Positions 30,240 through 64,000 of a stretch of DNA of 64,000 bases are shown one piece after another. This DNA comes from Dipteris shenzhenensis. Lineage: Eukaryota. The notes beneath the pieces were generated by a model. That model was not told the DNA's origin, did no database searches, and saw only the letters and a list, made by a program, of their open reading frames with translations. A program made the translations under genes and the position numbers. The DNA lies in NCBI GenBank assembly GCA_047967505.1, contig CM106538.1. One strand, 5' to 3'. The first letter of the stretch is position 1. The number at the start of each line of letters is the position of its first letter.

Positions 30240-30360
30240 ATGAAGACAATTGTGGTGGCGGGAACATGTAGTGGAGTCGGGAAATCAACCATTGCCATCG
30301 GGCTGATGGCAGCCTATTCTCGTCGTGGGTTGAGAGTGCAGCCTTTCAAAATTGGCCCAG
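30240..30360 (+). CDS. cbiA: CbiA-like exon 1 (P-loop)
   Basis: [40 protein letters not shown]; donor AG|GT at 30360/30361, phase 1. Confidence 0.9.
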
Positions 30361-39300: not shown

Positions 39301-42300
39301 TCGTGACACAACACACACAAGCAAGCTTGCCAATTATTCTCTGGGGCCTTTGATGAGAATTGGTACAGTAGTGTCACTGAGAATGCAACGTCAAGAGGAG
39401 TGCTGGTGAGGTAAAGTATACTCCATGAGTTTTCGATACTTACCAGCTCAAGTATGTCTTCTTTGCTGAGTTTATTCTCAACTTCCATACGTGTCGCAGC
39501 TTCTTTGCTTTCCTCCATCTGGAACCACTTCAGAATTTCTTGGCAGTATTCACCTTGAGAGACGAAAACATTTTCTTCCTTTTGCCATATCTTAATCCCC
39601 AAGAATAATGCAAAATACCAAGGTCAATCATGTCAAACTCTTCATATGCAATAGAGTTTTTACCTTATCTTTTTGTTGAGATCCCTAGTGAGGATAAGAT
39701 CATCCACGTAGAGAATCACTATCATTCTCTTGTCCCTCGCTAAATGGAGGTAAATTTTTGCATCCAGCGAACTTTGAGAAAGACCAATTTACGCGTAGTA
39801 GTCATCGTCGTGTTGGTAGCATGCCATAGAGCACCTTCTTGGTCTGAAAGCCTGTGGGTGCTCCACATAGACTTCCTCCTCCAAGTCTCCATTGAGAAAA
39901 GCAAATTCTGACCTTGCTGAACTTGCACCGGCAGTTAACATCTGTATGTATTATGTATCATGATAGGGCTTTTTCCATCGCTTAGATTTTATGAGGCATG
40001 TCCAAGGTTGGTCGCAAGAAAGTATCTCTGTGATGTTTCTCTTGGTTTTTTTTTTAAAATTTGGGGTGTAAACAAGCATTCCATTAAGTCTGCAGTTTGC
40101 CATATCCTTTCAGACCTTTGGATCTTAGATAGCTAAATTAAAGTCTTTTTTTCTTTTACATGATGAGCTCTGCGCTTGTTTTCAGATTCATCTAGATATA
40201 GACCCGAATCAAGGATTGTCTATGATTTGTATCCCAACCTGTTGTTATAACTAGAAGGCAAATATTTATTCTTCTTGTAGAAAAAGTGGGAGCTCAGTTG
40301 GCTCTTCAAGCATTCCATTCCACTAGAAAGGCTGGAAACTTTGTGCGGTAAAAAGCTAAAATGAAAAGGTTTCTATAAGGTCTTCTTTTCTGGCAGAGAT
40401 GCAAACCTGACTTGCTTCCAGCGATCTATTCCAAGTGCTGATCTTGCCATAGTTGAAGGGATGATGGGGTTGTATGATGGCTATGATGGAAAGTCTGAAC
40501 ATGGAAGCACAGCTGAGATGGCAAAGCTTCTAAGTGCTCCTGTACTTCTTGTACTTGACTGCTGGGCTCTTGCACGGAGTGCTGCTGCTATGTTGCGAGG
40601 ATACACGACGTTTGACCCCCAAGTCAAGTTTGCTGGTGTCATACTTAACAAAGTAAGAGGTCGACACCCTCCTCTCTGCTGATTGGAATTTTCTTTTGCA
40701 AAAAGCTTAAGTCACTCGGGTGTGAACGATGGGGATTAGATTTTCTTTTGTAGATAAGTTTGTTTAAGCAAGAAGACTGTCCAACCATGAGGAATTTGAC
40801 CTCTTATGTAAATGTGAGACCTCATTTGTTCTATGCATAACCATTATGAATATACTTTTTTTGAGATGTATTGCAGGTCAGTGGGCCATCTCACACAGCA
40901 TGCCTTACTGAAGCATTATCTTTGGCAGATGCAAAGCTTCAGATTTTTGGGGGACTGCCAAAGGTGGGAGACATACAGCATTCGGAAGAGAATCATGGGC
41001 CCATGAATGGAGATGGAAGTAATATCTACATACAACAATTGGCTGATCTCATGGAGCTTCATCTTGATTTGGATGCTGTCTTGGAAGAGGCTGCAGAATG
41101 TGATGCAGAAAACAGTGTCGAGGCATTGAGCAATGAATGTCTCTATCATAGCCCTTCTCCCAAGCAGTTCTATCCCAAGCATGTGCGTATTGGAATAGCA
41201 CGTGATGAAGCCTTTTGTTTTCACTATCATGAAAACTTATTTTTACTTCAAGGTAATATTTCTCCTGCATCTCTCGTGGACATGCTTTTTTCAGATTTTT
41301 GAGAACTATTTTCAACTTTATTAGCACTGCCTTCCAAGCAGTGGTATTGCCATTGAATGGCTGGGTTTTTATTTTTGAATCGTTTGCCACATATTAGATG
41401 TTAGAGTTGAGGCCCTTCTCAACAAGTAACCCTACACAGCAGATGAATTCAAATTCCCACTGCGAATTCACAGGTAGAACAGTAATGCAGGAAATAGAGA
41501 AGGAGAATCAGACTCTTATTTATCCACAAAGCAAGAGCTCAGAGAAGAGCAAGCAACATCCAGCAAGGTGCTGGACAACAGTTCAGAGAAGAGCGAGAAG
41601 CATACCAGCACCACAAACAACAGGCCGACTCAGGCTTACAATGGCCGAGCAAAGGATCATGAGGGTTAATGCACCGAGTTTGTTGCATATGGGATTGATA
41701 TCGTAGCCCCTATCCTTGCAAAGCTATTTAATGAAGTAGTTTGTTTCGGTTTCCCACGCACTTGGACCCTCAACACTATCATACCTATTCACAAGGCAGG
41801 GGATCCCACGGACCCAGGTAACTATAGGACCATTATGATCAGGCATGCCATGTCCAAGATCATGGTTGACACGTACGATCACGTTTGATGCGTGCTGTTT
41901 GATAGTAGTGCGGTACTAAACGAACTAAAAAATCTTAGGTGTACGTCCGATGGTACGTTCGATACAAAAAAAAAGAGGGATATTTTAGAGTTTTAGAGTA
42001 AGTTAAAACACAAACATGTCCATGACTTGATTCTTGAAAGTTGAAACACAAACATTCTAGAATCTACATGTTGCATAGGTGCAATTTGCAAGACTTAAAA
42101 GGACCGAAGATATATCATGATTCGTGACATAAAGTAGTGAGTACAAAAAGGGGGACCAAGGTCTAATATAGATGGAATCAAAAAGCTTTACTACTACAGG
42201 AAAGAGCCTAGGACCTAGGCCCTAGGTCCTAGCCTCTAGGTACTCCCATCACTGTCAAATCCAAGACTATGATCACTCTCACTAGAGGATGATGAGGATC

Positions 42301-45001: not shown

Positions 45002-45046
<45 letters not shown>

Positions 45047-48000
45047 GGAGGGAGAAGGACGAAGAGGCTTGAATCTTGATGCTTGGAGAAAGGGAGAGAG
45101 ATGGAGATGGAGATGGAGAAGGAGAGAGATGGAGATGGAGAGAAGCTTGATGGAGAGGGAGGAAGATGGAGATGGAGAGGGAGCTTGATGGAGAGGCCCA
45201 AGGGAGATGGAGAGGAGCTTGATGGAGAGGGAGAGAGAGACAGATGGAGAGGCACAAGGGAGATGGAGAGAAGCTTGATGGAGAGGGAGAGGGAGATGGA
45301 GATGGAGGGGGAGCTTCATGGAGAGGGAGAAAGAAAGAAATAAAGAAAAGAAAGAAATTTTATTAGTCTTTGGAAGACCGATGGGTCTATGAGATTGAAA
45401 GAAACCTTGATACAAATCACAGTGAGGGTGGAGCTACTGAAACGAGCATCATCACCCGTGCTGAATCCTAAGTCTGATCATACATAATCAAATACATCTG
45501 GATGTAACAATGAAAAGAAAAGGACTGGAGCGGAGTGGAATCCTCCGTACGTCATGTCCCCCTGGTTGGTGCATAGCCGGTGATGGGACGCTGGTGCCTG
45601 TCAAGGGGTGCCATGCATCTCGGTCTCCTGGACGAGGCTCGATGCAAGACCAGAGCCACCGTGACTCTCGTGGGACGTATCTCGGGTCTAAACAATGACG
45701 GGAGGTCTCCCAAAGTGATCTGTGTGTCCCCTCGATGTCTTGTGTGTCGTGCTACGATCGTTAGGTTGGGGTCTCTGTCACGTCGGCGGCTAGAGACTGG
45801 ACGATCAATGTCACTCGATGGGAAGAACTCTGTGATCCTGCTCTGAGAGGTGTCTGATGATGTGGTGAAGCCCCGTTGCCTGAGTAAGTACTCTCTATGT
45901 CGGACTCCCTCGTGAATGAAGGCTGCGAGGCATCTTTGGTCTGGGTAGGCGAGGAATTTGAAAAGGAGCCCGGAGCCGTCTCTGAAGAGGCAGTGGTAGC
46001 GACCTCGGATCTCGTAGTACACTGGGCACCTGAAAATAAAATGCTCCTCCGATTCCACCTCTTGACAGTCGCACAATATGCATAAGCGATGCTCCCTAGG
46101 AATCCCCTTTGCTCTGTTGCTCTCTATGCGGAGGCGGTGTGATGATACCCGAAATTGTCCGATGGAGATCCGTAGTGAGTGAGGCATATGAAGCTCAGTG
46201 TACCCCGGTGGTGTGATGAATCCCTCCTCCGAAATGCGAAGACAGTAATCTCTGTAGAAACTCAGCTTCACTGGAAGCCCCCTCGGCTCCAACCAGGTCC
46301 TAAAGGTGTGTAGCTGCAGGAGATCCTCTCGAATGACCTGGTTGGTATGTGGCCCAATCGGGATGGTGGGTGGGAGTACCGGAGGGGCATCTAAACTGTA
46401 CTGAAAAGGAGGTATCCTATCGATGTGGAACCCTAGTCTCACAAACTATCTGTGAGTCCGTGCATACCAGCATCGCTCGTCTCTCTCTGCTGCCAACCTC
46501 ATGGAGGAATCGAGAGCCAACCATGGCAACCTCTGTCTCCCTGATTTGCAGTCCCCATATGATCTAACCCGGTGTAGATATGTGATGGTTTGAAAGGCTG
46601 CATCTAGCTGGAGTGGAGAAGCACCAAACTCGGCCTGAATGATGTGATGTGGTACAGACGGTTTCCCCCGGATCATCCGTGAGAGCATGAGGATCTGCAA
46701 GCGCTCCACCCGTGCCCACTTTATCTCTGACATGTCAGGCCCCCAAAATGGACTGCCATACATACCGGTTGGTCAGACCAAGGAGTCGAAGAGAAGAGCC
46801 TTGGTCCAAGGGTCCTGGAAGTGGGAGTGAAAGCACTATCTCTCTAGCCGAGCCAGTGAGGCGTATCCCCTGCTCAGTCTGGCCTGTATCGCTGGTCTCA
46901 TCGTGAAGATCAGGCCGGAGAAGATGACGCCCAAGTAAGTGTATGAGGATATGATCTCAACTGGTGACCCACCCAAAGTAAAAGTAAACTGCTTCCGTTG
47001 CATGTTTGCTCGAGAGGTGTTAAAGATCATGACCTTGGTCTTGCCAAGATTGACCTCCAAATCATGGGATAAACAAAAAGCCTACAGTGCATCCAGGTGT
47101 CGCTGGAGCCCCTCGGGTGTGGATGATCCCGGCAAGTGAGCAACCGGTCTCTCGGAACGTCCCCATGAAAGTCTCAAGCTCATCGATGTAGGGCCAAACA
47201 GGGTCGGTGATAATGGACAACCCTGTTTGACCCCTATGGTACTCAGGATCTCATCTGTCCAACCTGGGCCTGTACGAACTCGGCCTGAGACTCTCATACA
47301 GTGCCATGACTGCCCAGATGATCTCCTGATCAAATCCCAGTGTCTGTAGGCGTGTGATAAGACGAGCTCGAGGTACTGTGTCAAAGGCTTTGCGGAAATC
47401 CACAAAGCAACAGTATACCCTCTCCTTCCGTGATCTGGCCTCCTCAATGACACTCCGAGTGTGAGTATGTGATCCATAGTCCCATGGTCTCGCCTGAAAC
47501 CGGCCTGACCCTCTGCTCTGAGCCCTCTCATCTCTGCGAACAGGTTGACTGATGCATCCAATACAGCTACATAGACCTTGGACATCACATGTCCAATCAT
47601 GATAGTCCTGTAGTTACTCGGGTCCATGGGATCCCCTACCTTGTGGATGGGGGTGATGGTGTTGAGTGTCCAAGTGCGGGGGAAGCCAAGGCAAACAACA
47701 TCATTGAATAGCTTTGCTAGGATCGGGGCTAACGTGTCGATCTCATATGCGATAAACTCAGTGCATAGCCCCTCGTGATCCTTAGCTCGGCCATTGTGTA
47801 GTTTCAATGTCGCGTCCTTGACTCCCCCTCTGGTGAACAACGTGCAAGTGGTGGGACGAGGTGTGTGTATGAGGTCTAGAGTGGGCTGGTATGGGACATC
47901 ATATAGATGGTGTGCATACATGTGCTAGACTCTCGTGTCGGTGAGGGGTGATGGGGACCTACGCTCAAGGAATCTCCACCAAAAATCCTTAGAGTTGTTG

Positions 48001-51000: not shown

Positions 51001-54000
51001 AAACCAGCTTCAACTGTCTTCGATCTAGCTCTGAAACACCTCCAGAAGCAACACATCCAGTGTTGAGGCCAGCAGGAGGAACAGGCAGCTAGGAGAAGGG
51101 AAGGAAGAGAGAGATAACGGGCTGGAATCAGAGGGAGAGAAAGAGCAGGAGGATCACGGGCAGAAGAGAGAAGGTGAGCAGCTAGCAAAGAGCGTTGGGC
51201 AGTCTAAATGGGCCGTACAAACAGCCAAAACAGCCTTGGGCTGTGTGAAAACAGTCCGTACAGCAATAACCACACCTTGGGATGCGTGCTAGCTGATCCG
51301 TACAGCAGGCCCGTTCCATACAGCAGCGATGAATGCTCCATACTGTGCCCTCGGTAGTCCCCCTGTGTCCTTCTATCTTTTTTGTTTCTTGTGTGAGCCT
51401 TACCCAATTTAGATTAAGGGGATGTCATAGTAGCTAGTCCCTGCTATGCGTGATGGAGTTTATGGTTTTCAATCTTATGAGTGACTATCGTGAGATTGAA
51501 ACTGCACTATGTTGTGTTTTTAGAGGATGAGTTTGGGAATGTTCCTGGATTCATCTAGGTATATGCTTCTGCCGTATTAGCGGACATGCAAATTTCACCT
51601 TGTGAAGTTTTCGTCCAAGTTGTGGCCTGTTGGTATTGCGATAATTCTTTCTATCTTAAATGGTGTGTTGCCCTATCAGCTAGATTTAGATTTAGATGCT
51701 CGTTTGGGATAGACGAAAATGAATTCGTTTAGACTTCACAAGTTGTTGTAGCTTGAATGAAGAGATTTGGACTACTTTTTGATTAGCCTTCTCCTTTAGT
51801 GCTAGCCTTTCTCATGGCTGAGTTTGCCCTTCACCTCCGGAGTGCCGACAAAAACGCAGTACGAAAACTTTGTATAAATGGATGCTCAAGTATGTGTGGG
51901 TGTGTGGATTTGTATGTGTGAGAGCATACTTTTATACTATGGTCTACACCCACTGTTGGGCGCTGATGACATCAGTGGGGATGTCATAGTAGCTAGTCCC
52001 TGCTATGCGTGATGGAGTTTATGGTTTTCAATCTTATGAGTGACTATCGTGAGATTGAAACTGCACTATGTTGTGTTTTTAGGGGATGAGTTTGGGAATG
52101 TTCCTGGATTCATCTAGGTATATGAATGCTCCATACAATCAGCCTTGGGGTGCGTACCTCTTCCGTACAGCCATCAATTAATGCAATTCAGCCACCTTGG
52201 CTCACGTGCCAATCAAAAGTTCTGTTCGTACAGCAGGCTAGCAATCCGTACAGCAGCGTTGAAAGCACTGTACAGCAGGTACGGACACCTTAAATGCAGT
52301 TCTTGCAGTCTATACAGCCGTACGGACTGCCTCGAGATGCGTGCAGGCCAAAAATGCAAGGAGTCAAGGCTTCCTGGGACTTTGTCCGGCGTGCCCCCTT
52401 CACCTTGGGATGCGTGAAAGAAGAGAGAGAAAACCAATGTCCAAAATCTGGCTTTTTTCCTTGAAAGGAGAGGAAGAGGGTAGGTGTGCATGAGGGGCTG
52501 CCACATGGCCCCCTCATTAATGCTCTAACCCTTGCAAACCAATGAAACATTGGTTTGCCCCTCACATTAAAATCCTAACCCCTTCTAACCAATGAAACAT
52601 TGGTTTCCTTGGGCCTAACTTTAAGACCCCTCTAAACCTTGTCTTGCCCCTAGCAAGTAGGCCTAGTGTGTGCACCTAGGGACTTTTGGGAAGTGTCGCT
52701 TCCCTTGGGCTAGTCCCTAAGCCAAAGTTAATCGCAGTTCATAACTTCATGCCCCCGTGACATTTCTCCCCCCCTTTTTTTTTTTTTTGAAAAAACAGTG
52801 CTAATTATATTACTTCGAGAACAAGATACAAGAGGTCAGCTTATAGCTGACGGGTTGCGTTCACAAACCGGACGCAGCCCAAAAGGTAGCATAATAGATC
52901 ATACTCTCACGGAGGGATATGCTGAGTGTGAATGAACAGCCATCGGGGTGGTGAGTAGTGCCACCGAAGGCCCTGCGTAGTCTGCTCGAAGAAGAGGCTC
53001 TGTGTGTCCCAAGCCTGGAGGAAGCGTCTCCGCTTCTCCTGACCGGCCCGGGAGTCTCCCTGAATCTGGTCCCACTGGCCTCTGAGGGTATGAATAATCT
53101 CACTCCAAATCTCCGCCATGATCTGGGCAGTCGATAAGGAGGTGCCACCGAGGATCTGCGCGCAGCGCGAGGTCCAGATGTGCCATCCTGTAATGCTGCT
53201 GATAATCTCCCAGACTGGCTGCCTCTCCCGAACTCCTGTATCAGCCTCTGCTAGGTGCTGTGGGATACCCTCGAGCGGCCCCCACGTCCCCTGTGTGATA
53301 AGGAAAGTGGGGTCCTGCTGGCATGCCTCGAACAAGTGATGAAGACCAGGTGCGGTGCTGCACCAACAGAACGCGCCCCAAGTGATCACTCCTAGCTCTG
53401 GTGCTGCATGAGCAAGAAGCCCGAAAGCCACCTCCACACTTCCTGGGCGCGCGTGCAGCTCCACAGGCAGTGTTTTGGTGACTCCTCATCCGCATGGCAA
53501 ATCTGACAGCAACCGTCCTGGCCTATCTGCCTCAACCAGCTCCCCACTGGAAGACCTTTGTGGGTAAGGAGCCACAGGAAGTATGAGATCTTCCGCGGCC
53601 GCCAGCTCTCCCACAAGGCCTTCCAGAATGCCTGCAAAAAGAACCTGGAAATACCCTGTGCGTACCAGCTAGGACGCTGGGTGGGGGGGCGGCTCTGCAT
53701 CCTCCCGAGAACTCGCCTGCCCAGAGTCGTGCTGTAAGTGAAGAAGGAAGTCGGCCCCTGTCCTGTCACAATCTCTGGCCACCACCACTCTCCTGGGTCC
53801 CACTCAAGTTCTGACAAGGCCCGCCCCTCCCAAAGCCAAAGACGCCAAAGCTGCAACTGGTCCTGCTCGATACTAGGGTCGGTATGCCAGACCTTCCCCA
53901 GAAGGCCTACGACCCTAACCCTCTGCCACGGGAGTAGGGGGTCGATGAGCGCATCCTCTCTCCTGAGTCGTCCATCCCCTGAAACCGCGAAGAAGGCGAT

Positions 54001-57000
54001 AGAGGAGTCATCCAAACGTCCTGCGACCACCAGTGGGATGCCACGGGGGGTGAACTGTCCCAGCCAGTGGGTGTCTCCAGGCATGAGGACCTGAGGCTCA
54101 GGTGGAGCCAACCAAGCGGCTGGGATCGCACCGTCGATCTCCGTGCGTCTCGCCTGGACTCCGCGTGCACCTCCAGCTGCGTCTGCAAGATCGGCCATCT
54201 CCAGATGTCTGTACGTATCCCTCCAAACTCGAAGGGACCGGGCTGGCCCCCTCATCCAGCCGTCCCACCTGATATGTGATCTCTCCCCCAACTGAAGGCC
54301 CTCGGCGTCTCTGACCTGCCCATTCCAGACGAGCGGCTGGCGATCGATCTCCTCCTGACAGCTGGGCTGGGACTGAATGAGACTGAGACGGAGCCGCCTC
54401 CAAACCATGAGGAGGCTACGAACGAGTGGGGAGCGGGGCTGAGTGAGCGGGGCGGAAGTGAAGATCCACCTGAAGGACGGTAGCCACTCTCCACCTCGGC
54501 GTGGGACACAAGAGCCGACTCCCTGCTGAAGTAACATCTTCCACGTCTGCCCCCCTGGGGTCAAACCGCGGATGATAAGCTTGCCTAACAAGGCCTGACT
54601 CTGAAGCTCTGGATCAATGACCCCCAGACCACCCTCAGCCTGCGGAAGAATGACTGTCTGCCAAGCAACCCTGGCTCTGGTATCTCTATGCCCATCCTCC
54701 CCAGACCAAAGAAAGTTCCGAACCAACCTCCTGAGCTGTGCCACGCTGGATCTCGAGAAGCACCAACAGGAAGCCACATACCAAGCCGTGGCTAGAAGGA
54801 CCTGGTTAACTACCAAAGCACGACCTGCAAGGGAAAGCTTAGCAGTGCTCCAGAAAGCCAGCTTCCGTCGGATGGAATCTAGCACCGGGAGAAACTGCTG
54901 AGCTGGCGTAATGTCTAGGCCAACCTGGAAGCCAAGGTATCTAGCTGTCTGTCCACGTGGAATCCATCTGAAGCCCAGAAATCGCCCCCACTGAGAACAC
55001 GCCCCCGGGTCTGTGAGAAAACCAACTGATTTGTTCCAGTTGATTTTCGCACCAGCGGCCGAGCAGAAAACCTCCAGGGCCATCCGCACCCTCTCTAGCA
55101 TCCTCTCATCGTCCTGGACATAAAGGGCTGTATCATCTGCGTACTCTGAGTCCAGAAGCGCCGTGTCCTCCCGGAGTGGAAGGCGAACACCCCTGAGCCC
55201 TGTGGACCTCGCCCGAAGGTAGTAAGTCATGGCCTCGGCGAAGAAGAGAAACAGATAAGGAGCCAGGGGACAGCCCTGACGTACTGATCTCTCCAAGCTG
55301 AATCGCTCACCCATCCTGCCTCCAATGATGACTCTGCTGGACGCTGTCCTGTACAAAGCTGAGATACCCTGAATCCAGCCTGCCGGGAAACCTAGCCGCT
55401 CCAGAGTCCCCTCCAAAAAGGACCAATCCACGCGATCGTAGGCCTTCTCGAAGTCGAGAAGTAAAATGGCAAGGTGTGATCCGCTGTACTGAGCCCACTC
55501 CGCCGCCTCTGAAAAGGTGAAGACATTATCCAGGATACTGCGATCCTGGACAAAGCCTGTCTGAGTGTCATGGACGAGGTCTGGAAGTAGAGGTCGAACT
55601 CTGGCACTGATCATCTTGGCGAGGATTTTGTAGGCAGTGGTAAGGAGAGTGATCGGACGCCACTGGCGGATCTCCTGTCTATCTCCTCCCTTCGGGATGA
55701 GGCAAATCAGTCCCGAGGAAAGGCTCTCTGGCATCTGACCGCTGCTGAAAATCCCCTGCAGAGCTGCAAGGAGGGGCTGATGGATCTGGTCCCAGAAGGA
55801 GGTGAAGAAAGCTCGGGATAGCCCATCCTCACCTGGGCATTTCTGCCCATCAATGGCCATCAAGGCCTCCAACATCTCATCCGAGGTGAACGGCGCCAAC
55901 AACGTCGCCTGCATGCTAGGCTGGACAAGGGATGGAATGTGCCTCCACACCTCCTCACGGTCACGACTAGCACGAGGGGCAAGTGGCTCCTGCTGGAAGA
56001 GGGTCCTGTAGAAGTCAGTGGCCAACCCCAGGACCTCCCCCGGGTCCGTAACAATGTGACCATCCGCTGTCCTGAGACTCCGTAGCTGATCCCCTGCAGC
56101 TCTCTGGCCGTGTGTCCTGAAGAACTCCCTGCACATCCGGTCACCCTTCCGGGCCCAGAAGGAGAGAGAGGCGTGATAGGAGAACTCGGAGCGACGCTGG
56201 AGGGTCTCCTCCAAGAGGGCTCTGGCTCGAAGGGCCTGGATCCGAAGCTCCTCCGAGCTCGGGGAAGACTGCTGAAGTCGCTGAATGGAGGCGAGGTCCC
56301 TCCGAAGAGCTCTCTCTCTGCCCCACCAATCCTGTCGAACCTGTAGGGCTGCGAGCTGGCAGATCTGGCTGGACTCCTGCAGAGCCTGCGCGACCGAGTC
56401 TACCAGATCCACGCCCTCCCCCCAGTCTCTGTCCCAAAGACTGCAAATGCTGCTACGGACGTCCACCCTCGAGAAGATGGAATCGGGAATCCTGCATGAT
56501 CGGGGGGGGAGAGTCTGGGCTGCCGAATCTAATGAAAGGAGCACAGGCGCATGGTCGGAGAGTGTCGTCCCTGGAACAATGCCCGCCTGGCCACCTCTGC
56601 TGATGGCCCAATCACTGACATAAAACCTATCAAGCCGCTCCAGGAGTCTGCCTCCTTCCCTGCGGAAGCCCCAAGAGAAGTCCAGGCTCCCGTGCCAACG
56701 CCGGAAGGACGGGTCTCTCCAACTGTCCCTCCCTCCTGTCGCGAAGATGAAAGAGTCCCAAGCTGACTGCTCTGTCTGAGCCATACCTGTGAACTCCGGA
56801 TCTCTACCCTGCTGGTCCTCCAAGGTCTCCAGGTTGTTGAAGTCTCCTCCAACAATCCAGGAATCCATGTCTGGAAGAATCCCTGTAAGTGTCCTCCAGA
56901 AGGTGGCTCTGCAACGGAGGTCTGTGGGAGCATAAATGTTGAGGATTCCTATCTTGGATCCCTCCAAATTCAGGCCTACCCAAAGGGCTCGGCCTGGGAT

Positions 57001-60000
57001 CAACGTGCCGTGACCGAAAACTATCTGAGCTAACTGCTCGCACACGGAGGTATAGACCCCCCCGCTCCTCCCCTGTGCGCCGATCGAAGGCTCCCAATAA
57101 GTGTAGGAGCGTCCAGGGAGAACCTTCCCGCAGCTGCGGGCATGAGCCGCAGAAAGCTTGTGCTCCTGGAGCAGCAGTACATCCAATCGACCAATCACTG
57201 CAGGCTGAAGTTCCTGACGCAAAATGAGCTTCCTGGGACCACGGGTGCTCGAAGAGTGAAACCCGTTCACATTCCAGGATACGAGGTGTAGGCTCATGGA
57301 GAGGGATGGGGGGCTGCGAACAGCTGTCTGCTCGCAGTCGAAGTCGAAGAAGAATCAGACATATCGGAGTGGAGGCGCTGCCGCTTGTGAGAAGGTTTGG
57401 AGGGGGAGACGGGGTCGTCCTGCCCGTTCTTCAACACCTTCAGCAATGGCGAGAGGCCTCTAGTGCCATGAGCAAATGCTTTCTCGAGCCAGCTCGAGAT
57501 CTCTGAAGTGGTCATCCCGTAGAAGGTTCGGAGTTTCTGTTGGGACCAAGCTCTGACATCCTGGGGAAGAGGCCATGCCAGGGGGGGTCTGAGGATCACG
57601 ATCAATCGGAAACGTTTGGCAGCGCAACGCCACCGCAAGCGCACATCGCCCTCGGACCACTGAGTCTCGAGGAGCTGCCCACCGGACGGGCCTATCCAGG
57701 AGCAAATCTGGGCGTGTGTCTGCTCTCTGAGAGCCTCCCACACCGAGTCGTCTGTCCAGGTCTCGGTGCCATCGCTGAGGAACGTGAAGGCGAAGCTAGG
57801 GCCATCCCTGGGAGCCAAGGCAGCAAGCTTCCCATCCGCCCCTTTGCGGAGCATGAAGATACTAATGTCGAGACAAGCCGGGAAGGTCCCAAGGTCGGCC
57901 ACATCCAGGTAGTCCCAGGGGCCAGATCTGTAAAAGTCTCGAGGGAGCTCTCTCTCCTGGAGCTGAGACCCAGCTGAGTCTGCCACTGAGGGGCTAGCGG
58001 GAAGGGAAACCTGCTCCACTGGTGGTACAGACTCCGGGTGTCTTACAAGCGGGGGGGGAGGGGGAGGAGGCTGCGGGATAGGCGACTCGGGCTCCACGGA
58101 GGCGACTGGCGGAGAAGGTGGAGGAGGTGGAACGGAGGCTGCACTCGGCTGGGAAGGCGACGGTGCAGCTAACTCTGTAGGAGGGGCGAGGGGAGCAGGG
58201 GGGGGAGGGGGATGGGGATGCATCTGGAACTGGGGCTGAGGGGGAGGGGGAGGGGGAGGGGACTGAGGGAAAGGAGGCGGGGGCTGAAACTGCGGGGCGG
58301 GCGAAGGGGGGGGGGGAAACTGGGGAGAAGGCGGGGGGGTGGGAGAGAGGAGGATCTGAGGCTGTGGAGGGCGGGCTGCCGTCAAAGAAGAAGCTCTCCC
58401 AGGTCCCTGGGGCATCTGCCTGTCAGGTCTCTGGAGTACTGCTGCAGGAAGGGTGACCTCTGCCTCCTTGCCTTTATCCGAAATCTTCTTATTCTTTCCT
58501 CTTTTCCTTCGAACCTCGGTCCAACCGCCCACTACCTCTGGCCCAGGCTCCGACTGCCTCGGCTCCTCCTGACGTGGCTGTCCGGGGGGGGGAGGTGGGG
58601 GCGGAGGGGGCGGGGGCGGGGAGGGTCGAGACGAGCTGGCAAAGCGTGGACAAGCAGCCGCCAAGTGCCCAAAGCCATGGCACCGCAGGCACTGACCTGG
58701 CTGTCCGGTGACTATCATGCTCTGGGTGATACTGCCGGCACCTGTCACGATCTCGATCACTGCAGGGAGAGTCGCAGGATCCGCCACAGCCACACGGACT
58801 CGGGGAGCTCCTGCCGTGGTCACCGCGTCGGCAAAGGTGTCGTGCATAACCCAGCCAAAATGGGAGCCCAAGTCCCTGACAATCGGCCGCAGCTCAGTAG
58901 CAAGCCCTGGAAAAACTAGTGTCACTGGGTGGCGAGGTATACGGAACCGAGTATCGAAATCCGCTGCGCTGAAACCACGGTACCACGGGACTATCATGAT
59001 GATCTTCCCATCCACCGATGTGGGGGAACTGGCAATCAGATTGCTCGCAGCTTTCTCACTGGAGAGTTTGAGCCAGAAGATGCCCCTTCCCATAAGGGCC
59101 ACCTCCTCAATGTGGCCATCCTCTAGCAAGAGAGTGGACTGGAGCCAGTCCCTGATGGTAGACCTGGAGGGGGAGTGTCCAATGACTCTACCGTAAACAG
59201 AGGTACGAGCAAAGTCACTGGCTACCGCCTGAACACGGGATGATTGTTGCTCTGTCAGGATAACGCGGTAGGCATCTGGAGAGGGAGGGTCCGACTGGGC
59301 CTCCGGATCCGGGCTGGGGGCCGCCATACCGCCAAGACTAACTGCAAGCTTCCGATGAAGAAAAACAGGCTGCCACCCAAGAAGGGGATGAAGCGGCGGT
59401 GGAGCCTGGAGGTGAGGCGGGCGAGGCGAAATGAAGGGTCGGAGGGGTCGAAGCGGAGGGCGGGGCGAAGGCTGCGGGATGCGGGGAGTACGGAAGGGGG
59501 CGAGAGGGCGGGGGGGGGGTGAAGTTGGAATGGCGGGGGTGGAGGGGTGAAGCGGGGGGGCGAGGGGAGCGGAATGAGGCGGAGGCGGGTGAAGCGAGGG
59601 GGTGAAGGAGCAGCGAGGGGGCGGGTTGGAGCGGGGTGGATGGCGAGGGAGCAGCGAGGGGCGGAATGGAGCGGAGGCGGGGCGAGGGCGAGGCGGGCTT
59701 AAAAAAAAAAAAAAAAAAAGGACGAGGCGAGGCGAGGCGGGATGGAGCGGAGGGGGCGGTTGGAGCGGCGGCGAGGGGGGGTTGGAGCGGGGGCGAGGGG
59801 CGGGTTGGAGCGAGGGGGCGGGATGGAGCGGAGGTAAGGGGGCGGGATGGAGCGAGGGGGCGGGTTGGAGCGAGGGGGCGAGGGACGAGGGGCGGGTTGG
59901 AGCGAGGGGCGGGTTGGAGCGAGGGGGCGGGTTGGAGCGAGGGGGCGGGTTGGAGCGAGGGGGCGAGGGGCGGGTTGGAGCGAGAGGGCGGGATGGAGCG

Positions 60001-63000
60001 GAGGCAAGGGGGCGGGATGGAGCGAGGGGGCGGGATGGAGCGAGGGGGCGGGATGGAGCGAGGGGCGGCTGGAGCGGAGGTGAGGCGAGGGGTAGCGGGG
60101 TGCCGGCGGGGGGGGAGGAGAGGGGACGGGGGTCGAGGGCGGACGGGAGGGGTGGAGGTGGTCGCGGCGAGGGGGGGGGGGGGAGCGAGGGGGGAGGTAG
60201 GGGCTAACGGCGAGGGGGGGAGGGGAAGCTCGCAGGAGCTCTAACGAGACACAGAAAGTTTACGCGAGCCATTGCATCAACCAATCTCAGACATGATGAT
60301 GGCTTGCCACCATTTGCAGGTGCATTGTTTCCAGGCAGGGGACAGGCTCCCTAGGTCTGCCTATGTGCTGCGTGGAAGCTCTTGGAGGCGCCTAGGGTTG
60401 TGGGTCCTCTGCTGCGCACTATGGAGGGCAGTGTGGGGGTCTGTTGAGTTGGCCTATGGGTAGGGCGGGCCAGTCCCTTTAGGGCTGTATGGAGCAGCAT
60501 GTCCATCAGTGAAGCACAGGATTTCGTCTGCCTACTACCCTTTGTGCAACGGTCTTGCAGAATAGACTAATGGAACACTGTGTGAAGTTATTGCTAAGAT
60601 GATCTAGAGGACCAGATCTGAATGGGAAAAGTGGCTGCTTTGTGGGCCTATTGTATTACATATAAGGTGGCTACAAGGTACTCTCCATTTCACTTGGTGT
60701 ATGGGACAGAAGCAGTTTTGCCAATTGAAAGGTTGCATGAGCAAAGGCGAGAGGCGCTTATGGCCAATGAAGTGTCTCAAAGGGCTATGAAAGCGAGAAT
60801 GGATAACAGAAGGAGATCTAGTTCTGAAATATGATAGTAGACTGGACCATCATTTAGACAAGAAGTTTTTAGTCAGATGGGAAGGCCCATTTGTTATCTT
60901 AAAAGCTTATGCAAATGGATCTTATGATCTGAGGGAGCTTGGCTAGCAGATGCCTATCGAACGGGTCAATGGATTTAGCTTGAAGTTCAAAGAAAGATAA
61001 GATGTATGATTTTTGCTGCTGATTTACAACTGGTTGCAGCGTTTATGTACCATCATTATTGGCATCATCATCGGACTTGGATGAGCTGTCCACTGCTTTA
61101 GAAGATTGTGGCATACTGTTTGTTCGGAAACGATTCATTCTCTTAAAAAAGGACATCTTGCTCTTTAGGTGCTTCTGCCCAAAATACATTTGGCACATTT
61201 ATATCCTTGAGCATGCATCTGGCAGATGCAATAAGATGATGATTTTTCCTCCCAAACTAGGCACCAAGGCTTTGCTACGTGGGTTGCTTGGATCTGCGTG
61301 TCGCACAAGGAAAACCCAAAAACACCAAAAAGTTGAAGAAAAGGCTACCTTCCCTCTCGTGCTTCAGTCCGAGCATTGAACATGCTACCCCGTTATGACA
61401 CCCGTTATAGCCTATGGGAAATTTTCCTAAGAAGTCCTTCCCTGGGATGCTCCAAAATCCAACCTCTTGGGCATGATTTTCCACAACAGAACACTTCCAA
61501 CTGCCTGTTGTGACGATTTCTTCCTGTTCGGCCATCTGCTCTGCCGGCAGTTGCAAAGCAGCACTTTCTGTTGCATGCAGTCGCGTTTTCAAGCTCGGTC
61601 CCCACTTCTGGTTTTCCCAGTTGGGTTCTGGCCTGCAGTTGCTTCCTTAGGCAATTGCGGCCTTCCTTGCCGCCGCCGCTATGTGCGGGCCTTCCTTGCT
61701 GTGTCATCCTGCCTGCTCATGCCTTGGTGCTGCAAGTCTACGAAACTGTTTGTTGGCTTGTTCTTCTCTGCTGTGGCAGGTTACCCTGGTTATTTGACCA
61801 GTCTCATTGCCGGAGAGCTTTCTTTCCAGCTTCCTCCCTCTTAATGCATGCCTCTCTCACACCCTTCATGCAAGACTGCCTCAAGCTTTGAAGATTCATA
61901 GTTGCAAGTGGAAGGTGTGCTCTGATACCAAATATGAAAGCAAGGAGTGGGAGGAAGCTCAAAGCAATAGATTCAACAACACACGCAAAAGTGTGAAAGT
62001 ACAACATAAGTATGAAACCCTGGAACTAACCCTAATGATTTGGCACCTAAAATCTAGGAGACCTCACCAGTTCATAGAGCATATGTGGTTGAGGTGCTTA
62101 ACTGAATACGTAAGAAAAATATGATTAGGGCCTAGTGAGATATGGACGGTAAAGTACACACGGTCCTGCATGCCATTATAACCATTAGGATTTTATCCTA
62201 CAAAGCAACATATTAGGTGTGAATGAGCTCACAGCCTGTTGCCTACGTGATTTTATGATAAAAGAACTGTATTTTTATGCTCGAGATGTCAGAGTCTCTT
62301 CCTGTCTCATGCAGACATTTGATAGATTACTTTTTTTTGACAAATGGTGTGGCCTGATACAATGTATCTAATACGAAGTTGTATCATTTCCTGACAGATG
62401 CTGGTGCAGAGCTCGTTTACTTTTCACCGCTGAAGGATTCCCTACCCTCTAGTCTTGATGCTATTTTCTTTGGAGGTGGCTACCTTGGCCTTTATCTGGA
62501 CCGCCTATCAGCCAACAAGCAGCTTTTGTATGCTGTCCGTGCATTTGCCGATGCTGGAGGTATCGTGTATGGTGAATCAGGTGGTCTGATGTACCTATCA
62601 CAAGGAGTTGAGGTGCTTTGATGGGCTATATACCTCTTTTCTTTGTTATGCATGCTTACATAAAATACCGACCAAATGGAATTAGGATCTTTTCTCCATT
62701 AACGTTGTCCGTCGATTGACTTGTATTGCAGCTGTGTGGGGAATTCTTTGAGCAATGAAGCAATCCTATCTTCTGTCTGTAAACAGGGTCAAGATATGCA
62801 GTCATTTCCAATGTCAGGGGTCTTCCCATTTTGGACTCGATTTGGAGAATCAATAAGAACTGGTTATGTGAAGGTATTGGTTGTTTTGAGGTGCTGGCGT
62901 CTAAATTATTTTAGATCTTCATTTATCCTAATACTGCGAAAGTTATTATGTGCTATATGGTTTCTGTTTGGCATTGCATCTGTTGATCTCATGCTTCTGT

Positions 63001-64000
63001 GCATTTTCCATATTTTTTCTCGTCTTGTGATCTCATTTTCCTTATGACAATGGAAACAGGTGACGCCTCGAGATAATTGCGTGATTTTCCCAGCTGAAAT
63101 AGGAGAGATTCGAGGCTTTATGTACTCTTCTAGTGAGATTTTCTTCCCAGATGGAACTTCTATTGACACATGCTGCAAAGGGTAATGTAATACCAAGAAT
63201 TGCACAGCCGGATTGTATTTTATTATTTTGCAAACAGCATTAAGACATCATGATGGTCAATTATTTACTAATCCTGCAGAGTGTCCTTCTAGCCTTGCAT
63301 GTACTCTCTGATTATTGTCAGGAAAGTTGAGCATATCATTATATAAACAGTGGACCATGCTGTTGGTTAAGAGAGAGTCATCTTGGCTTTCAATGTTTTG
63401 TACAATACCTTAGGGCATTCAGCAGGCTGAATTTTCTGTATACGTGGTCAGGTTCATTATAAATACTGATCAAGGCAGAGCACATATGGAATGGGAGGGA
63501 TACATGCAAGGGAATGCTATGAGCAGTTTGGTGCATCTTCACTTTGGTAGCAATCCAAGCGTGGCATATGCTTTGGTGGAGCGTTGTAGGTTGGTTGCCT
63601 CTTTAAGCTAGCACTTCTGGAACTTATGGGACATGATTACTTGCCGATGCTGCATGGTAATAATGATCTATGCTTGAGAGAGAAAGTGCTTGTTTTTATC
63701 TTTTCTCAGTTGGAATAAGCAAATGGATACATTGGTGGATGCAGGATGGATCGGACAAAAGCAGCAGCTGTTGCTGCGGCTTCAGCATCAGCTGTGGCTG
63801 GAGCAGGCCCTGCAGCTGCTGCTGCGGCAGGTGCTGCAGCTGCTGAAGCTGTTGCTGCTGCCTTGGGTGAGTGTGGAGAAATTGTGCCATATTCCAGCAT
63901 AGGCATGGCTTTCAATATGAAGGATCTTCCATATCAGACTATCAATAGAATGGGCAGTACTCGTCTCACCTTACCTTTCAAGCAAGGAGACGACTGGAAA
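30240..64000 (+). CDS. cbiA: Intron-containing cobyrinate a,c-diamide synthase-like (CbiA/CobB family) protein, 3'-partial; exons 30240-30360, 30447-30522, 40397-40652, 40877-41252, 62398-62612, 62787-62873, 63060-63181, 63452-63589, 63745->64000
   Basis: Spliced translation gives collinear CbiA/CobB motifs: [17 protein letters not shown] (deviant Walker A), [109 protein letters not shown]. All introns are GT-AG with matching phases and there are no in-frame stops (about 549 codons in window). Confidence 0.9.
30447..30522 (+). CDS. cbiA: CbiA-like exon 2
   Basis: ttgcag| (D)[24 protein letters not shown](R) |gtaac; too short for the ORF track. Confidence 0.9.
32504..34041 (-). mobile_element. 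Ty3/Gypsy (Tf2/chromovirus-like) gag-pol fragment in intron 2
   Basis: Clean RT core ([45 protein letters not shown]); gag start MVQTRAQ; in-frame TGA at 33209-33211; capsid, protease, RNase H and integrase missing. Confidence 0.9.
34050..37731 (+). mobile_element. hAT DNA transposon, apparently complete (3682 bp)
   Basis: 8-bp TSD GTTGCGAG at 34042-34049 and 37732-37739; termini CATAGTTGC...GTAACTATG; subterminal AAACGG/CCGTTT arrays. Confidence 0.95.
34604..37172 (+). CDS. hAT transposase, 752 aa spliced (34604-36063, 36237-36552, 36690-37172)
   Basis: BED finger (WRCNYC...HLAG...C), CDGW and VTDNGSN (D, D), CASHC, WWEKYG, CERNWS (E) and dimerization domain; GT-AG introns in phase; no stops. 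Confidence 0.9.
38846..39256 (-). mobile_element. LTR (about 38859-39256, TG...CA) with adjacent tRNA-iMet PBS
   Basis: Minus strand reads TGATAAATGG...TTTTTACA g TGGTATCAGAGC; PBS at 38846-38857. Confidence 0.7.
39290..39930 (-). mobile_element. Ty1/Copia RT remnant
   Basis: [26 protein letters not shown]...[13 protein letters not shown]. Confidence 0.8.
40397..40652 (+). CDS. cbiA: CbiA-like exon 3
   Basis: tggcag| [28 protein letters not shown]...AGVILNK |gtaag. Confidence 0.9.
40877..41252 (+). CDS. cbiA: CbiA-like exon 4
   Basis: ttgcag| VSGPSH...[22 protein letters not shown] |gtaat. Confidence 0.9.
42236..44997 (-). pseudogene. hAT transposase pseudogene (spliced, frameshifted)
   Basis: BED finger [34 protein letters not shown]; frameshifts near 43500 (MEG/ATLGLL) and near 43190. 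Confidence 0.85.
45329..48380 (-). mobile_element. RTE/RTEX-like LINE, 5'-truncated, inside the second hAT
   Basis: [61 protein letters not shown]; 3' end with AATAAA and (TTTC)n tail on minus strand. Confidence 0.9.
50400..52774 (-). mobile_element. LTR-like non-coding sequence with PPT at 52763-52774
   Basis: Minus strand GGGGGGGAGAAA followed by TGTCAC (PPT then LTR start); ccgtacagc subrepeats; boundaries uncertain. Confidence 0.5.
51418..52124. repeat. 148-bp near-identical direct repeat (51418-51565 and 51977-52124)
   Basis: One mismatch seen (ttagagga vs ttagggga); period 559 bp. Confidence 0.9.
52907..57297 (-). CDS. L1 ORF2 (APE endonuclease, RT, zinc-binding domain) with one frameshift near 53430
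   Basis: [67 protein letters not shown]...[10 protein letters not shown]; continues in the 52907-53464 frame (WHIWTSRC). Confidence 0.9.
57294..59327 (-). CDS. L1 ORF1 protein (RRM/DUF4283-like region, CCHC knuckle, Pro-rich linker), 677 aa
   Basis: Open frame; [14 protein letters not shown] knuckle; immediately upstream of ORF2. Confidence 0.85.
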   Translation of the reverse strand: MAAPSPDPEAQSDPPSPDAYRVILTEQQSSRVQAVASDFARTSVYGRVIGHSPSRSTIRDWLQSTLLLEDGHIEEVALMGRGIFWLKLSSEKAASNLIASSPTSVDGKIIMIVPWYRGFSAADFDTRFRIPRHPVTLVFPGLATELRPIVRDLGSHFGWVMHDTFADAVTTAGAPRVRVAVADPATLPAVIEIVTGAGSITQSMIVTGQPGQCLRCHGFGHLAAACPRFASSSRPSPPPPPPPPPPPPGQPRQEEPRQSEPGPEVVGGWTEVRRKRGKNKKISDKGKEAEVTLPAAVLQRPDRQMPQGPGRASSLTAARPPQPQILLSPTPPPSPQFPPPPSPAPQFQPPPPFPQSPPPPPPPQPQFQMHPHPPPPPAPLAPPTELAAPSPSQPSAASVPPPPPSPPVASVEPESPIPQPPPPPPPLVRHPESVPPVEQVSLPASPSVADSAGSQLQERELPRDFYRSGPWDYLDVADLGTFPACLDISIFMLRKGADGKLAALAPRDGPSFAFTFLSDGTETWTDDSVWEALREQTHAQICSWIGPSGGQLLETQWSEGDVRLRWRCAAKRFRLIVILRPPLAWPLPQDVRAWSQQKLRTFYGMTTSEISSWLEKAFAHGTRGLSPLLKVLKNGQDDPVSPSKPSHKRQRLHSDMSDSSSTSTASRQLFAAPHPSP
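59620..60075. repeat. GC-rich tandem repeat array (about 18-bp unit) in the L1 5' UTR
   Basis: Unit ggcggg(t/a)tggagcgaggg repeated more than ten times; A19 run at 59701-59719. Confidence 0.85.
60500..60990 (+). mobile_element. Gypsy integrase remnant
   Basis: [50 protein letters not shown]. Confidence 0.8.
61919..62202 (-). mobile_element. Short LTR (about 61935-62202) with tRNA-iMet PBS
   Basis: Minus strand TGTAGG...CTTTCA tatt TGGTATCAGAGC; PBS at 61919-61930. Confidence 0.65.
62398..62612 (+). CDS. cbiA: CbiA-like exon 5 (glutamine amidotransferase-like domain)
   Basis: gacag| (D)[13 protein letters not shown]...GGGYLG...[16 protein letters not shown] |gtgct. Confidence 0.9.
62787..62873 (+). 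CDS. cbiA: CbiA-like exon 6
   Basis: aaacag| [29 protein letters not shown] |gtatt; matches the xPMxGxxP...GY segment of CbiA. Confidence 0.85.
63060..63181 (+). CDS. cbiA: CbiA-like exon 7
   Basis: aaacag| [40 protein letters not shown](G) |gtaat. Confidence 0.75.
63452..63589 (+). CDS. cbiA: CbiA-like exon 8
   Basis: gtcag| [45 protein letters not shown](R) |gttggt; EGY...HLHF.SNP is the CbiA C-terminal motif. Confidence 0.8.
63745..64000 (+). CDS. CbiA-like exon 9 (Ala-rich linker, continues past window)
   Basis: tgcag| [85 protein letters not shown]; phase-compatible, open to window end, GCN codons vary at third position. Confidence 0.6.

Follow-up and report, generated by a model that had tools for sequence, protein, structure and literature searches.

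A stretch of 64,000 nucleotides from Dipteris shenzhenensis (GenBank assembly GCA_047967505.1, contig CM106538.1), which we refer to as the window, carries a gene for a protein related to the CobB/CbiA a,c-diamide synthases, in which the catalytic cysteine of the glutaminase-like domain is replaced by serine. We consider it probable, at roughly 0.8, that this protein is dead for glutamine, yet functional and maintained by selection. The gene is intact, spliced and nuclear. Its product has an a,c-diamide synthase module of CobB/CbiA type and a linker, which in the orthologues are followed by a haem/B12-type binding domain. An earlier sequence-only reading of the window had proposed a half-dead pseudo-enzyme, and this proposal fits the evidence better than a pseudogene or a sequencing error, the gene being spliced, open and strongly selected. 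Three things are new: a whole vascular-plant clade has lost the nucleophile, such losses have recurred in the family, and a domain that is predicted to be dead has been retained under selection.

Replacement of the catalytic cysteine

The window protein reads GESGGLMYL (GGTGAATCAGGTGGTCTGATGTACCTA, window 62571-62597, + strand) at the position where the alignment showed ECGGLMYL in five named bacterial and archaeal CobB proteins and in the moss, Marchantia, Chara and Chlorokybus proteins. The elbow of bacterial CobB/CbiA is AECGGLMYL. The window sequence bore out the previously described GESGG motif in exon 5, with the codon TCA at 62577-62579, and the encoded serine (Ser337) aligned unambiguously to the CobB/CobQ-type nucleophile. 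Cysteine at the nucleophile elbow is the mark of an active glutamine amidotransferase, and both the window protein and its closest relative, P0001 (80% identity over 454 columns), carry Ser instead.

The Cys column was occupied by Ser in the window protein, P0001 and Diphasiastrum, and by Ala in Selaginella, while mosses, Marchantia, streptophyte algae and bacteria retained Cys. When the conservation of Ser in the clade was checked, the loss of Cys was thus common to the relatives, but the replacing residue was not Ser in all of them. All four clade proteins had also lost LG in PERHLGL (RHLGL), PE in GGGYPE, and His in RGHxFHxS. The altered motifs reported by the sequence-only reading were found as described, namely GGGYLG (62472-62489), RGFMYSSS (63111-63134), and, in place of the PERHLGL of relatives, SEENHGPM (40982-41005). 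The motifs GxGK[ST], FKxGPDxxDP (slightly altered in Diphasiastrum), NLDxWM, EGxxGxx, ARDxAFC, and HLHFGS were retained in all four proteins. The RG-motif Arg and the His pair were kept as well. In the window itself, the P-loop, FKxGPDxxDP, EGxMGLxDG and HLHF, which had been described as intact, were all located in exons 1-3 and 8.

The window protein was equally distant from Diphasiastrum and Selaginella (62-66% identity). A careful tree of 17 rows placed it within land plants (support 100/100) and together with P0001 (100/100), and this pair was joined to Diphasiastrum and Selaginella with support of 81/78. The set of four Cys-less proteins had a support of 89/87, which is below the starred level, and a single ancestral loss of Cys is therefore likely, not proven. 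Given the equal distances and the branching outside the lycophyte pair, an assignment of the window protein to the lycophytes was rejected as unproven; by these data it is of a spore-bearing vascular-plant type, perhaps a fern. No fern or seed-plant protein was found among the matches listed.

Gene structure

The gene model was built from tblastn of the relatives P0001 and P0002 against the window, followed by inspection of the exon borders. It comprises nine exons with GT..AG at all eight introns and 549 open codons without a stop, of which TCA is codon 337. The exons, the longest intron and the critical codon are as follows.

30240..30360, + strand: exon 1, with the start codon and the P-loop GTCSGVGKS (30261-30287); it ends within the FKIGP/D motif, with GT at 30361, and was placed by tblastn of P0001 and P0002
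30447..30522, + strand: exon 2, with the synthetase motifs from DFLDP to NLDTWM; placed by tblastn and sequence
40397..40652, + strand: exon 3, with the synthetase motifs EGMMGLYDG (40455-40481), GSTAEMAK and ARSAAA; placed by tblastn and sequence
40877..41252, + strand: exon 4, with SEENHGPM (40982-41005) replacing the PERHLGL loop and with the motif that opens the glutaminase-like domain; placed by tblastn and contig ends
41253..62397, + strand: intron 4, 21,145 bases, GT..AG, filled with transposons
62398..62612, + strand: exon 5, in which the glutaminase-like domain starts, containing GGGYLG (62472-62489) as well as the nucleophile elbow; placed by its PF07685 match and the spliced contigs X1, X2 and X3
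62577..62579, + strand: codon TCA for Ser337, at the alignment position of the catalytic Cys
62787..62873, + strand: exon 6; joint 62612/62787 present in the X1, X2 and X3 contigs
63060..63181, + strand: exon 7, with RGFMYSSS (63111-63134) replacing RGHEFHYS; joint 62873/63060
63452..63589, + strand: exon 8, with VHLHFGS (63531-63551; HLHF at 63534-63545) and the conserved His pair retained; joint 63181/63452
63745..64000, continuing past the window end, + strand: exon 9, with an Ala-rich segment and the beginning of the long linker; placed by contig ends and alignment

The joint between exons 1 and 2 splits the FKIGP-DFLDP motif. Two introns are very long, with 9,874 bases before exon 3 and 21,145 bases in intron 4, and both are rich in transposon remains. 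Since the P-loop enzyme module begins at residue 1, the protein has no N-terminal targeting extension. Exon 5 alone matched the Pfam family GATase_3 (PF07685) with 40.7 bits (E 2.5e-10; cut-off 27), and tblastn revealed no second copy of the exon within the window. The window stops inside the linker at 64000, and the C-terminal binding domain and the 3' half of the gene lie beyond it.

The Ala-rich stretch of exon 9 (63745-63860, corresponding to residues ~458-495 of P0001) was near-identical across mosses, lycophytes and the window protein. In an alignment that covered Chara, Chlorokybus and the remaining algal proteins and did not contain liverworts, the stretch was missing from these algal proteins. 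The model of P0001 placed it in two helices with pLDDT of 58-76. Being unusually conserved for a low-complexity sequence, this stretch may be a land-plant-specific anchor or interaction segment.

Splicing, the serine codon and selection

Contigs from four public sequencing runs (X1-X4) of four studies were compared with the window; four further runs (X5-X8) shared almost no words with it and were set aside. The library kinds of these runs were guessed ("DNA?" or "RNA?"), and the contigs are therefore called transcript-like. The X1, X2 and X3 contigs joined exons 5, 6, 7 and 8 precisely at the predicted GT..AG borders. Contig ends extending before 62396 corresponded, with one synonymous difference, to the last part of exon 4 on the other side of the 21-kb intron, and those extending past 63594 corresponded to the window from 63751 onwards, at the start of exon 9. 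The codon at 62577-62579 was covered in three of the four runs (X1, X2, and X3), while X4 covered only 62396-62505. No alternative letter was found at this codon in any of the three, and hence neither TGC nor TGT appeared there. The statement that TCA is two substitutions away from any Cys codon holds for both TGT and TGC, and C-to-U editing would turn TCA into TTA (Leu).

Near the end of exon 4 (41240-41245), the overhanging contig ends from X1, X2 and X4 read TTC where the window has TTT, a synonymous difference in a Phe codon, and therefore even the runs that are 99+% identical to the window are not letter-identical to it.

The X3 contigs came from a related organism (organism C) and were 95-99% identical to the window. 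All 14 listed differences fell on third codon positions; 12 of them were synonymous, and the other two were conservative (F>L and I>M). With ~129 synonymous and ~435 non-synonymous sites, a dN/dS of roughly 0.05 was obtained from these 14 of the 28 differences counted. Because the codon was unchanged, the contigs were spliced, and the differences were mostly synonymous, a sequencing error, editing or a pseudogene is very unlikely.

Among the four Cys-less proteins, the glutaminase-like domain was 62-64% identical between lineages, compared with 65-67% for the synthetase domain. The resulting ratio of 0.92-0.98 is on a par with that of Cys-bearing pairs (0.79-0.97). The glutaminase-like domain has thus not drifted, and the whole module is under purifying selection, including the presumably dead domain.

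A eukaryotic family of CobB fusions

The orthologues of the window protein have ~1000 residues and contain PF01656, PF07685 and PF01497, that is, a CobB/CbiA a,c-diamide synthase module, a long linker, and a periplasmic-binding-protein-type domain. The family was searched with exon 5 (best 120 of 303 matches) and with P0001 (best 120 of 138 matches from the 8000 candidates richest in common words). Among the matches listed were proteins of liverworts, mosses, Diphasiastrum, Selaginella, streptophyte algae, several green algae, oomycetes, dinoflagellates and Triparma. Most members kept the Cys, including those of mosses, Marchantia, streptophyte and green algae, oomycetes, dinoflagellates and Triparma. 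The eukaryotic proteins formed one clade (SH-aLRT 99 with 50 rows; 100/100 with 17 rows), which was sister to cyanobacterial CobB.

Scores for the whole module were measured on the orthologues P0001, P0002 and P0003, not on the spliced window protein. These three scored 381.6, 358.6 and 379.7 bits against the NCBIfam CobB equivalog NF002204 (cut-off 254), and 347.8, 320.7 and 347.3 bits against TIGR00379 (cut-off 261.4). Membership in CfbB (NF033195) was rejected, with 306-330 bits for P0001-P0003 against a cut-off of 560. For the binding domain PF01497 (cut-off 27.5), P0002 scored 43.2 bits, P0001 25.4 and P0003 22.2; the C-terminus of the window gene itself lies past the window.

Our literature search found no published description of a eukaryotic CobB fusion. 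In the main text of papers on plant B12 metabolism, CBA1 and algal B12, the terms cobyrinic, CbiA and CobB were not mentioned, supplements being outside the scope of this search. A CobB-like transcript in a prymnesiophyte was mentioned in passing in PMC4057078.

Further domains were present in some members. In several oomycete, dinoflagellate and Triparma proteins (P0145-P0149, P0152, P0156 and others), the binding domain was followed by added Kelch-repeat propellers and a tail of DUF5522 (PF17653). In two metagenomic proteins of ~1070 residues (P0183 and P0187), the CobB module was fused to Plug and TonB-dependent-receptor domains, so that eukaryotes are not alone in having this enzyme joined to an uptake component.

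Recurrent loss of the nucleophile

The motif pattern was found in 119 of the 126 proteins examined first, of which 108 had Cys and 11 had another residue. An exhaustive search of 1.84 billion cluster representatives added 139 proteins; two of these were without the region, and among the other 137 there were 133 with Cys and four without it. All Cys-less proteins had at least 886 residues except P0277 (513 residues). On a tree of 50 rows, the minimum number of changes between Cys and other residues was six, indicating that Cys was lost at least six times in the eukaryotic fusion clade. The lineages concerned include the window's clade, Riccia (Gly, with Cys in Marchantia) and Elliptochloris (Gly), and the others are alga-like. 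Gly was found at the nucleophile position in Riccia and at least eight other proteins, and further Ser variants occurred elsewhere in the family (P0235, P0207 and P0277).

The RHLGL motif was lost in 8 of 10 Cys-less rows compared with 3 of 40 Cys rows, an association that was not significant (median p 0.5 to 1). In the same table, the entries of Cys rows counted as having lost the P-loop were mostly missing stretches (for example in P0004), not genuine losses. Judged by its motifs, the window's clade shows the most complete glutaminase-side loss in the family with the synthetase motifs intact.

The liverworts offered a close comparison. Between Marchantia (P0121 and P0122, with Cys) and Riccia (P0123 and P0124, with Gly), all other motifs were equal and the module was 86-91% identical. 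Only the Cys-to-Gly change separates the Riccia motifs from those of Marchantia, and the loss is a clean natural knock-out and apparently very recent.

Predicted structure

An AlphaFold2 model of P0001, computed from an alignment of 54 rows, was confident over residues 1-460 (pLDDT >90) and 720-1048, and disordered over 499-716. In this model, Ser329 lies between a strand (324-328) and a helix (330-335), which is the nucleophile-elbow position. The proposed check of triad geometry was thus made on the model's secondary structure only, and at that level the serine sits where the nucleophile is expected.

Foldseek matched the C-terminal domain of P0001 to PhuT (2r79), ShuT (2r7a), BhuT (5giz) and BtuF (5ysc and 1n2z), with TM-scores of 0.73-0.85 (target-normalised), E of 1e-13 to 1e-10, and identities of 13-22%. 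The N-terminal module matched CTP synthases. No solved CobB/CbiA structure was found by phmmer of P0001 against the PDB sequences or among the Foldseek matches listed; the only phmmer match was 4m7o, which matched the C-terminal domain.

Comparison with known amidotransferases and binding proteins

CobB, CbiA and CfbB are described as amidating a tetrapyrrole at its a and c acetates, for which they need ATP and glutamine (PMC7242693); for CobB/CbiA the tetrapyrrole is (hydrogeno)cobyrinic acid. The module of the window gene has the same two domains in the same order with the same synthetase motifs. It differs from CobB/CbiA in having Ser for Cys and decayed RHLGL, GGGYPE and HxFHYS motifs, in being nuclear with eight or more introns, and in that its eukaryotic form is fused through a ~220-residue disordered linker to a binding-protein domain, as seen in the orthologues. 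Its host group is also reported to have dropped known B12 metabolism (PMC11439496). CfbB has the same fold and performs the same a,c-amidation on Ni-sirohydrochlorin in coenzyme F430 synthesis, according to PMC7242693, so the family is able to use non-corrin tetrapyrroles. With the triad amidotransferases, CobB/CobQ are said to have only the catalytic Cys and His in common (PMC5871853, citing Galperin and Grishin 2000).

The closest functional precedent is human CPS1, which has Ser294 in place of the catalytic Cys and is reported to be unable to use glutamine, to retain the inactive domain, and to take free ammonia (PMC4655335). The window protein likewise has a class I-type glutaminase domain with Ser for Cys, and this domain is likewise retained. 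The two differ in that the synthetase part of CPS1 is an ATP-grasp, unrelated to the dethiobiotin-synthetase-like P-loop fold of the window protein, in their substrates, and in that the two losses of Cys do not share common descent. By analogy, the window protein works most plausibly like CPS1. The earlier suggestion that it does not hydrolyse glutamine thus gained support, which derives from the Ser294 precedent as reported in PMC4655335.

The C-terminal domain of P0001 has the fold of class III periplasmic haem/B12 binding proteins; in the window gene, that domain lies outside the window. The fusion protein differs from periplasmic binding proteins in having no N-terminal signal peptide, its first residue being that of the enzyme module. 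A BtuF-like fold is also reported for CBA1, a protein of algal B12 uptake (PMC10828217).

Under our reading, the protein would no longer draw ammonia from glutamine, the synthetase half would still bind ATP, and the glutaminase-like domain would be retained for a structural role, either in the ligand site or in an oligomer. One tentative version, to which we give somewhat less than even odds, is that the protein uses ATP and free ammonia to amidate a tetrapyrrole-type carboxylate, in the manner of mammalian CPS1. Salmonella CbiA reportedly accepts ammonia at high Km (a result attributed to Fresquet, Williams and Raushel, 2004).

Other features of the window

The introns contain several transposon remains. 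Intron 4 harbours a LINE-type element with an open endonuclease/reverse-transcriptase frame of 1,320 codons (53392-57354, - strand) and an upstream Pro-rich frame of 969 codons with a CCHC knuckle (57294-60203, - strand), and the G+C-rich tandem-like repeats at ~59,800-60,200 are part of this element. Mutually related remains of hAT-type transposases were found one per intron, in intron 2 at 34079-36067 and 36642-37172 (both + strand) and in intron 4 at 43470-45315 (- strand). A gypsy-type reverse-transcriptase fragment lies at 32504-33946 (- strand), within the 9,874-base intron.

Alternative explanations

The protein might be non-catalytic altogether. It would then perform no amidation, and the P-loop module would serve as an ATP-dependent switch, cooperating with the C-terminal domain in the binding, sensing or transfer of a tetrapyrrole-type ligand, with glutamine perhaps acting as a signal. 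We regard such ATP-dependent binding or hand-over without amidation as possible, if doubtful. In its favour, Cys was lost at least six times in the fusion clade, compared with a single loss, in a protein of 513 residues, among the bacterial-length proteins examined, and the repetition of the loss implies that the selected role of the family tolerates the loss of glutaminase. Some Cys-less lineages (P0141, P0239 and the P0164 group) have lost synthetase motifs as well, among them the P-loop Lys, and the disproportion in RHLGL loss (8/10 against 3/40 rows) goes in the same direction. As the RG-motif Arg and the His pair were retained, the glutamine pocket may survive. However, the vascular-plant clade retained every synthetase motif as well as Cys-bearing relatives did, the identity of 65-67% that the synthetase domain kept across deep splits is more than mere binding obviously requires, and the binding of a ligand is itself putative. 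A different possibility is that Ser337 and the retained His form a working pair and glutamine is still hydrolysed, perhaps slowly. Ser was retained in the window protein, P0001 and Diphasiastrum, together with HLHF, and the family contains the other Ser variants mentioned above. On the other hand, the Ala of Selaginella and the Gly of Riccia and at least eight other proteins imply that a nucleophile is not needed there, and in human CPS1 the same Cys-to-Ser change accompanies an inability to use glutamine, as reported in PMC4655335. GGGYPE and the His of FHxS also decayed alongside the nucleophile. The C269S mutant of Escherichia coli CPS is reported to bind glutamine without hydrolysing it. 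We consider a working Ser-His pair most improbable.

A Cys-bearing paralogue in the same genome could provide the glutaminase in a mixed oligomer, so that the pair still uses glutamine. Genome duplication is frequent in spore plants, and P0001, at 80% identity, could be a paralogue, not an orthologue, of the window protein. Nevertheless, P0001 also has Ser, and Diphasiastrum and Selaginella had one cluster each (best 120 of 303 and best 120 of 138 matches). The 1.84 billion cluster representatives yielded no extra land-plant-like protein above 43% identity except P0124, P0003 and the fragment P0126, in a search where clustering would hide paralogues that share over 50% identity with a representative. 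We find such a partner very improbable. The least probable explanation is a decaying pseudogene, a processed copy, or an artefact of sequencing, assembly or editing at TCA. The 9.9- and 21.1-kb introns packed with transposons and the guessed library kinds would fit it. It is opposed by the 549 open codons with 8/8 GT..AG introns, by the spliced contigs in four runs of four studies with the codon unchanged in all three that cover it, by the predominance of synonymous differences (12/14), by the same replacement in independently sequenced relatives, and by the single copy of the exon detected by tblastn in the window. We give it almost no credence.

Several observations count against the reading of a glutamine-dead, functional and selected protein. 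The inability to hydrolyse glutamine is argued by analogy for every eukaryotic fusion member, weak nucleophilic action by a Ser beside a retained His is conceivable in principle, and a Cys-bearing paralogue could supply ammonia in trans. Other Cys-less lineages have lost synthetase motifs too, with Ser in place of the P-loop Lys in P0141 and P0239, and amidation with free ammonia is therefore a weaker proposal for the family as a whole. The co-loss of Cys and RHLGL, like that of Cys with the PE and the His, is non-significant and rests on three well-supported independent pairs (six in total). The support of 89/87 for the four Cys-less proteins is unstarred, which makes a single ancestral loss likely only, and the dN/dS estimate uses 14 listed of 28 counted differences. 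As the library kinds were guessed, the contigs might, with low probability, derive from a processed DNA copy, and the C-terminal domain and full 3' end of the gene are outside the window.

Significance

CobB is a textbook enzyme of the B12 pathway and plants are textbook non-users of B12, and an open, spliced gene with a dN/dS of ~0.05 is therefore unexplained. B12 is made by some prokaryotes only, and vascular plants and mosses are described as having no known B12 metabolism (PMC11439496). The loss of Cys here and at least five more times in the family is a natural experiment, in which several lineages appear to manage without glutamine hydrolysis, and it narrows the options for function to ammonia-dependent amidation or ATP-dependent ligand handling. 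Comparison pairs are at hand, with Marchantia (Cys) and Riccia (Gly) as the best pair for experiment, and moss (Cys) against lycophytes (Ser or Ala) as another. The window gene also adds a natural case of a presumably dead glutaminase domain retained in an otherwise conserved enzyme, for which CPS1 is the precedent.

The finding bears on the question of B12-related machinery in the first land plants. A broader proposal, which we consider unlikely as it stands, is that early land plants, many algae, oomycetes and dinoflagellates, which are unable to make B12, carry a cytosolic system for handling corrinoids or tetrapyrrole carboxylates, in which the CobB module is combined with a binding domain of haem/B12 type. 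Its core job would not be glutamine-dependent amidation, given the repeated knock-outs of the nucleophile, including one in a vascular-plant lineage that held the protein under strong selection through the divergence of the window's lineage, Diphasiastrum and Selaginella. If this proposal is true, plants deemed free of B12 metabolism would hold a remnant or repurposed tetrapyrrole/corrinoid pathway.

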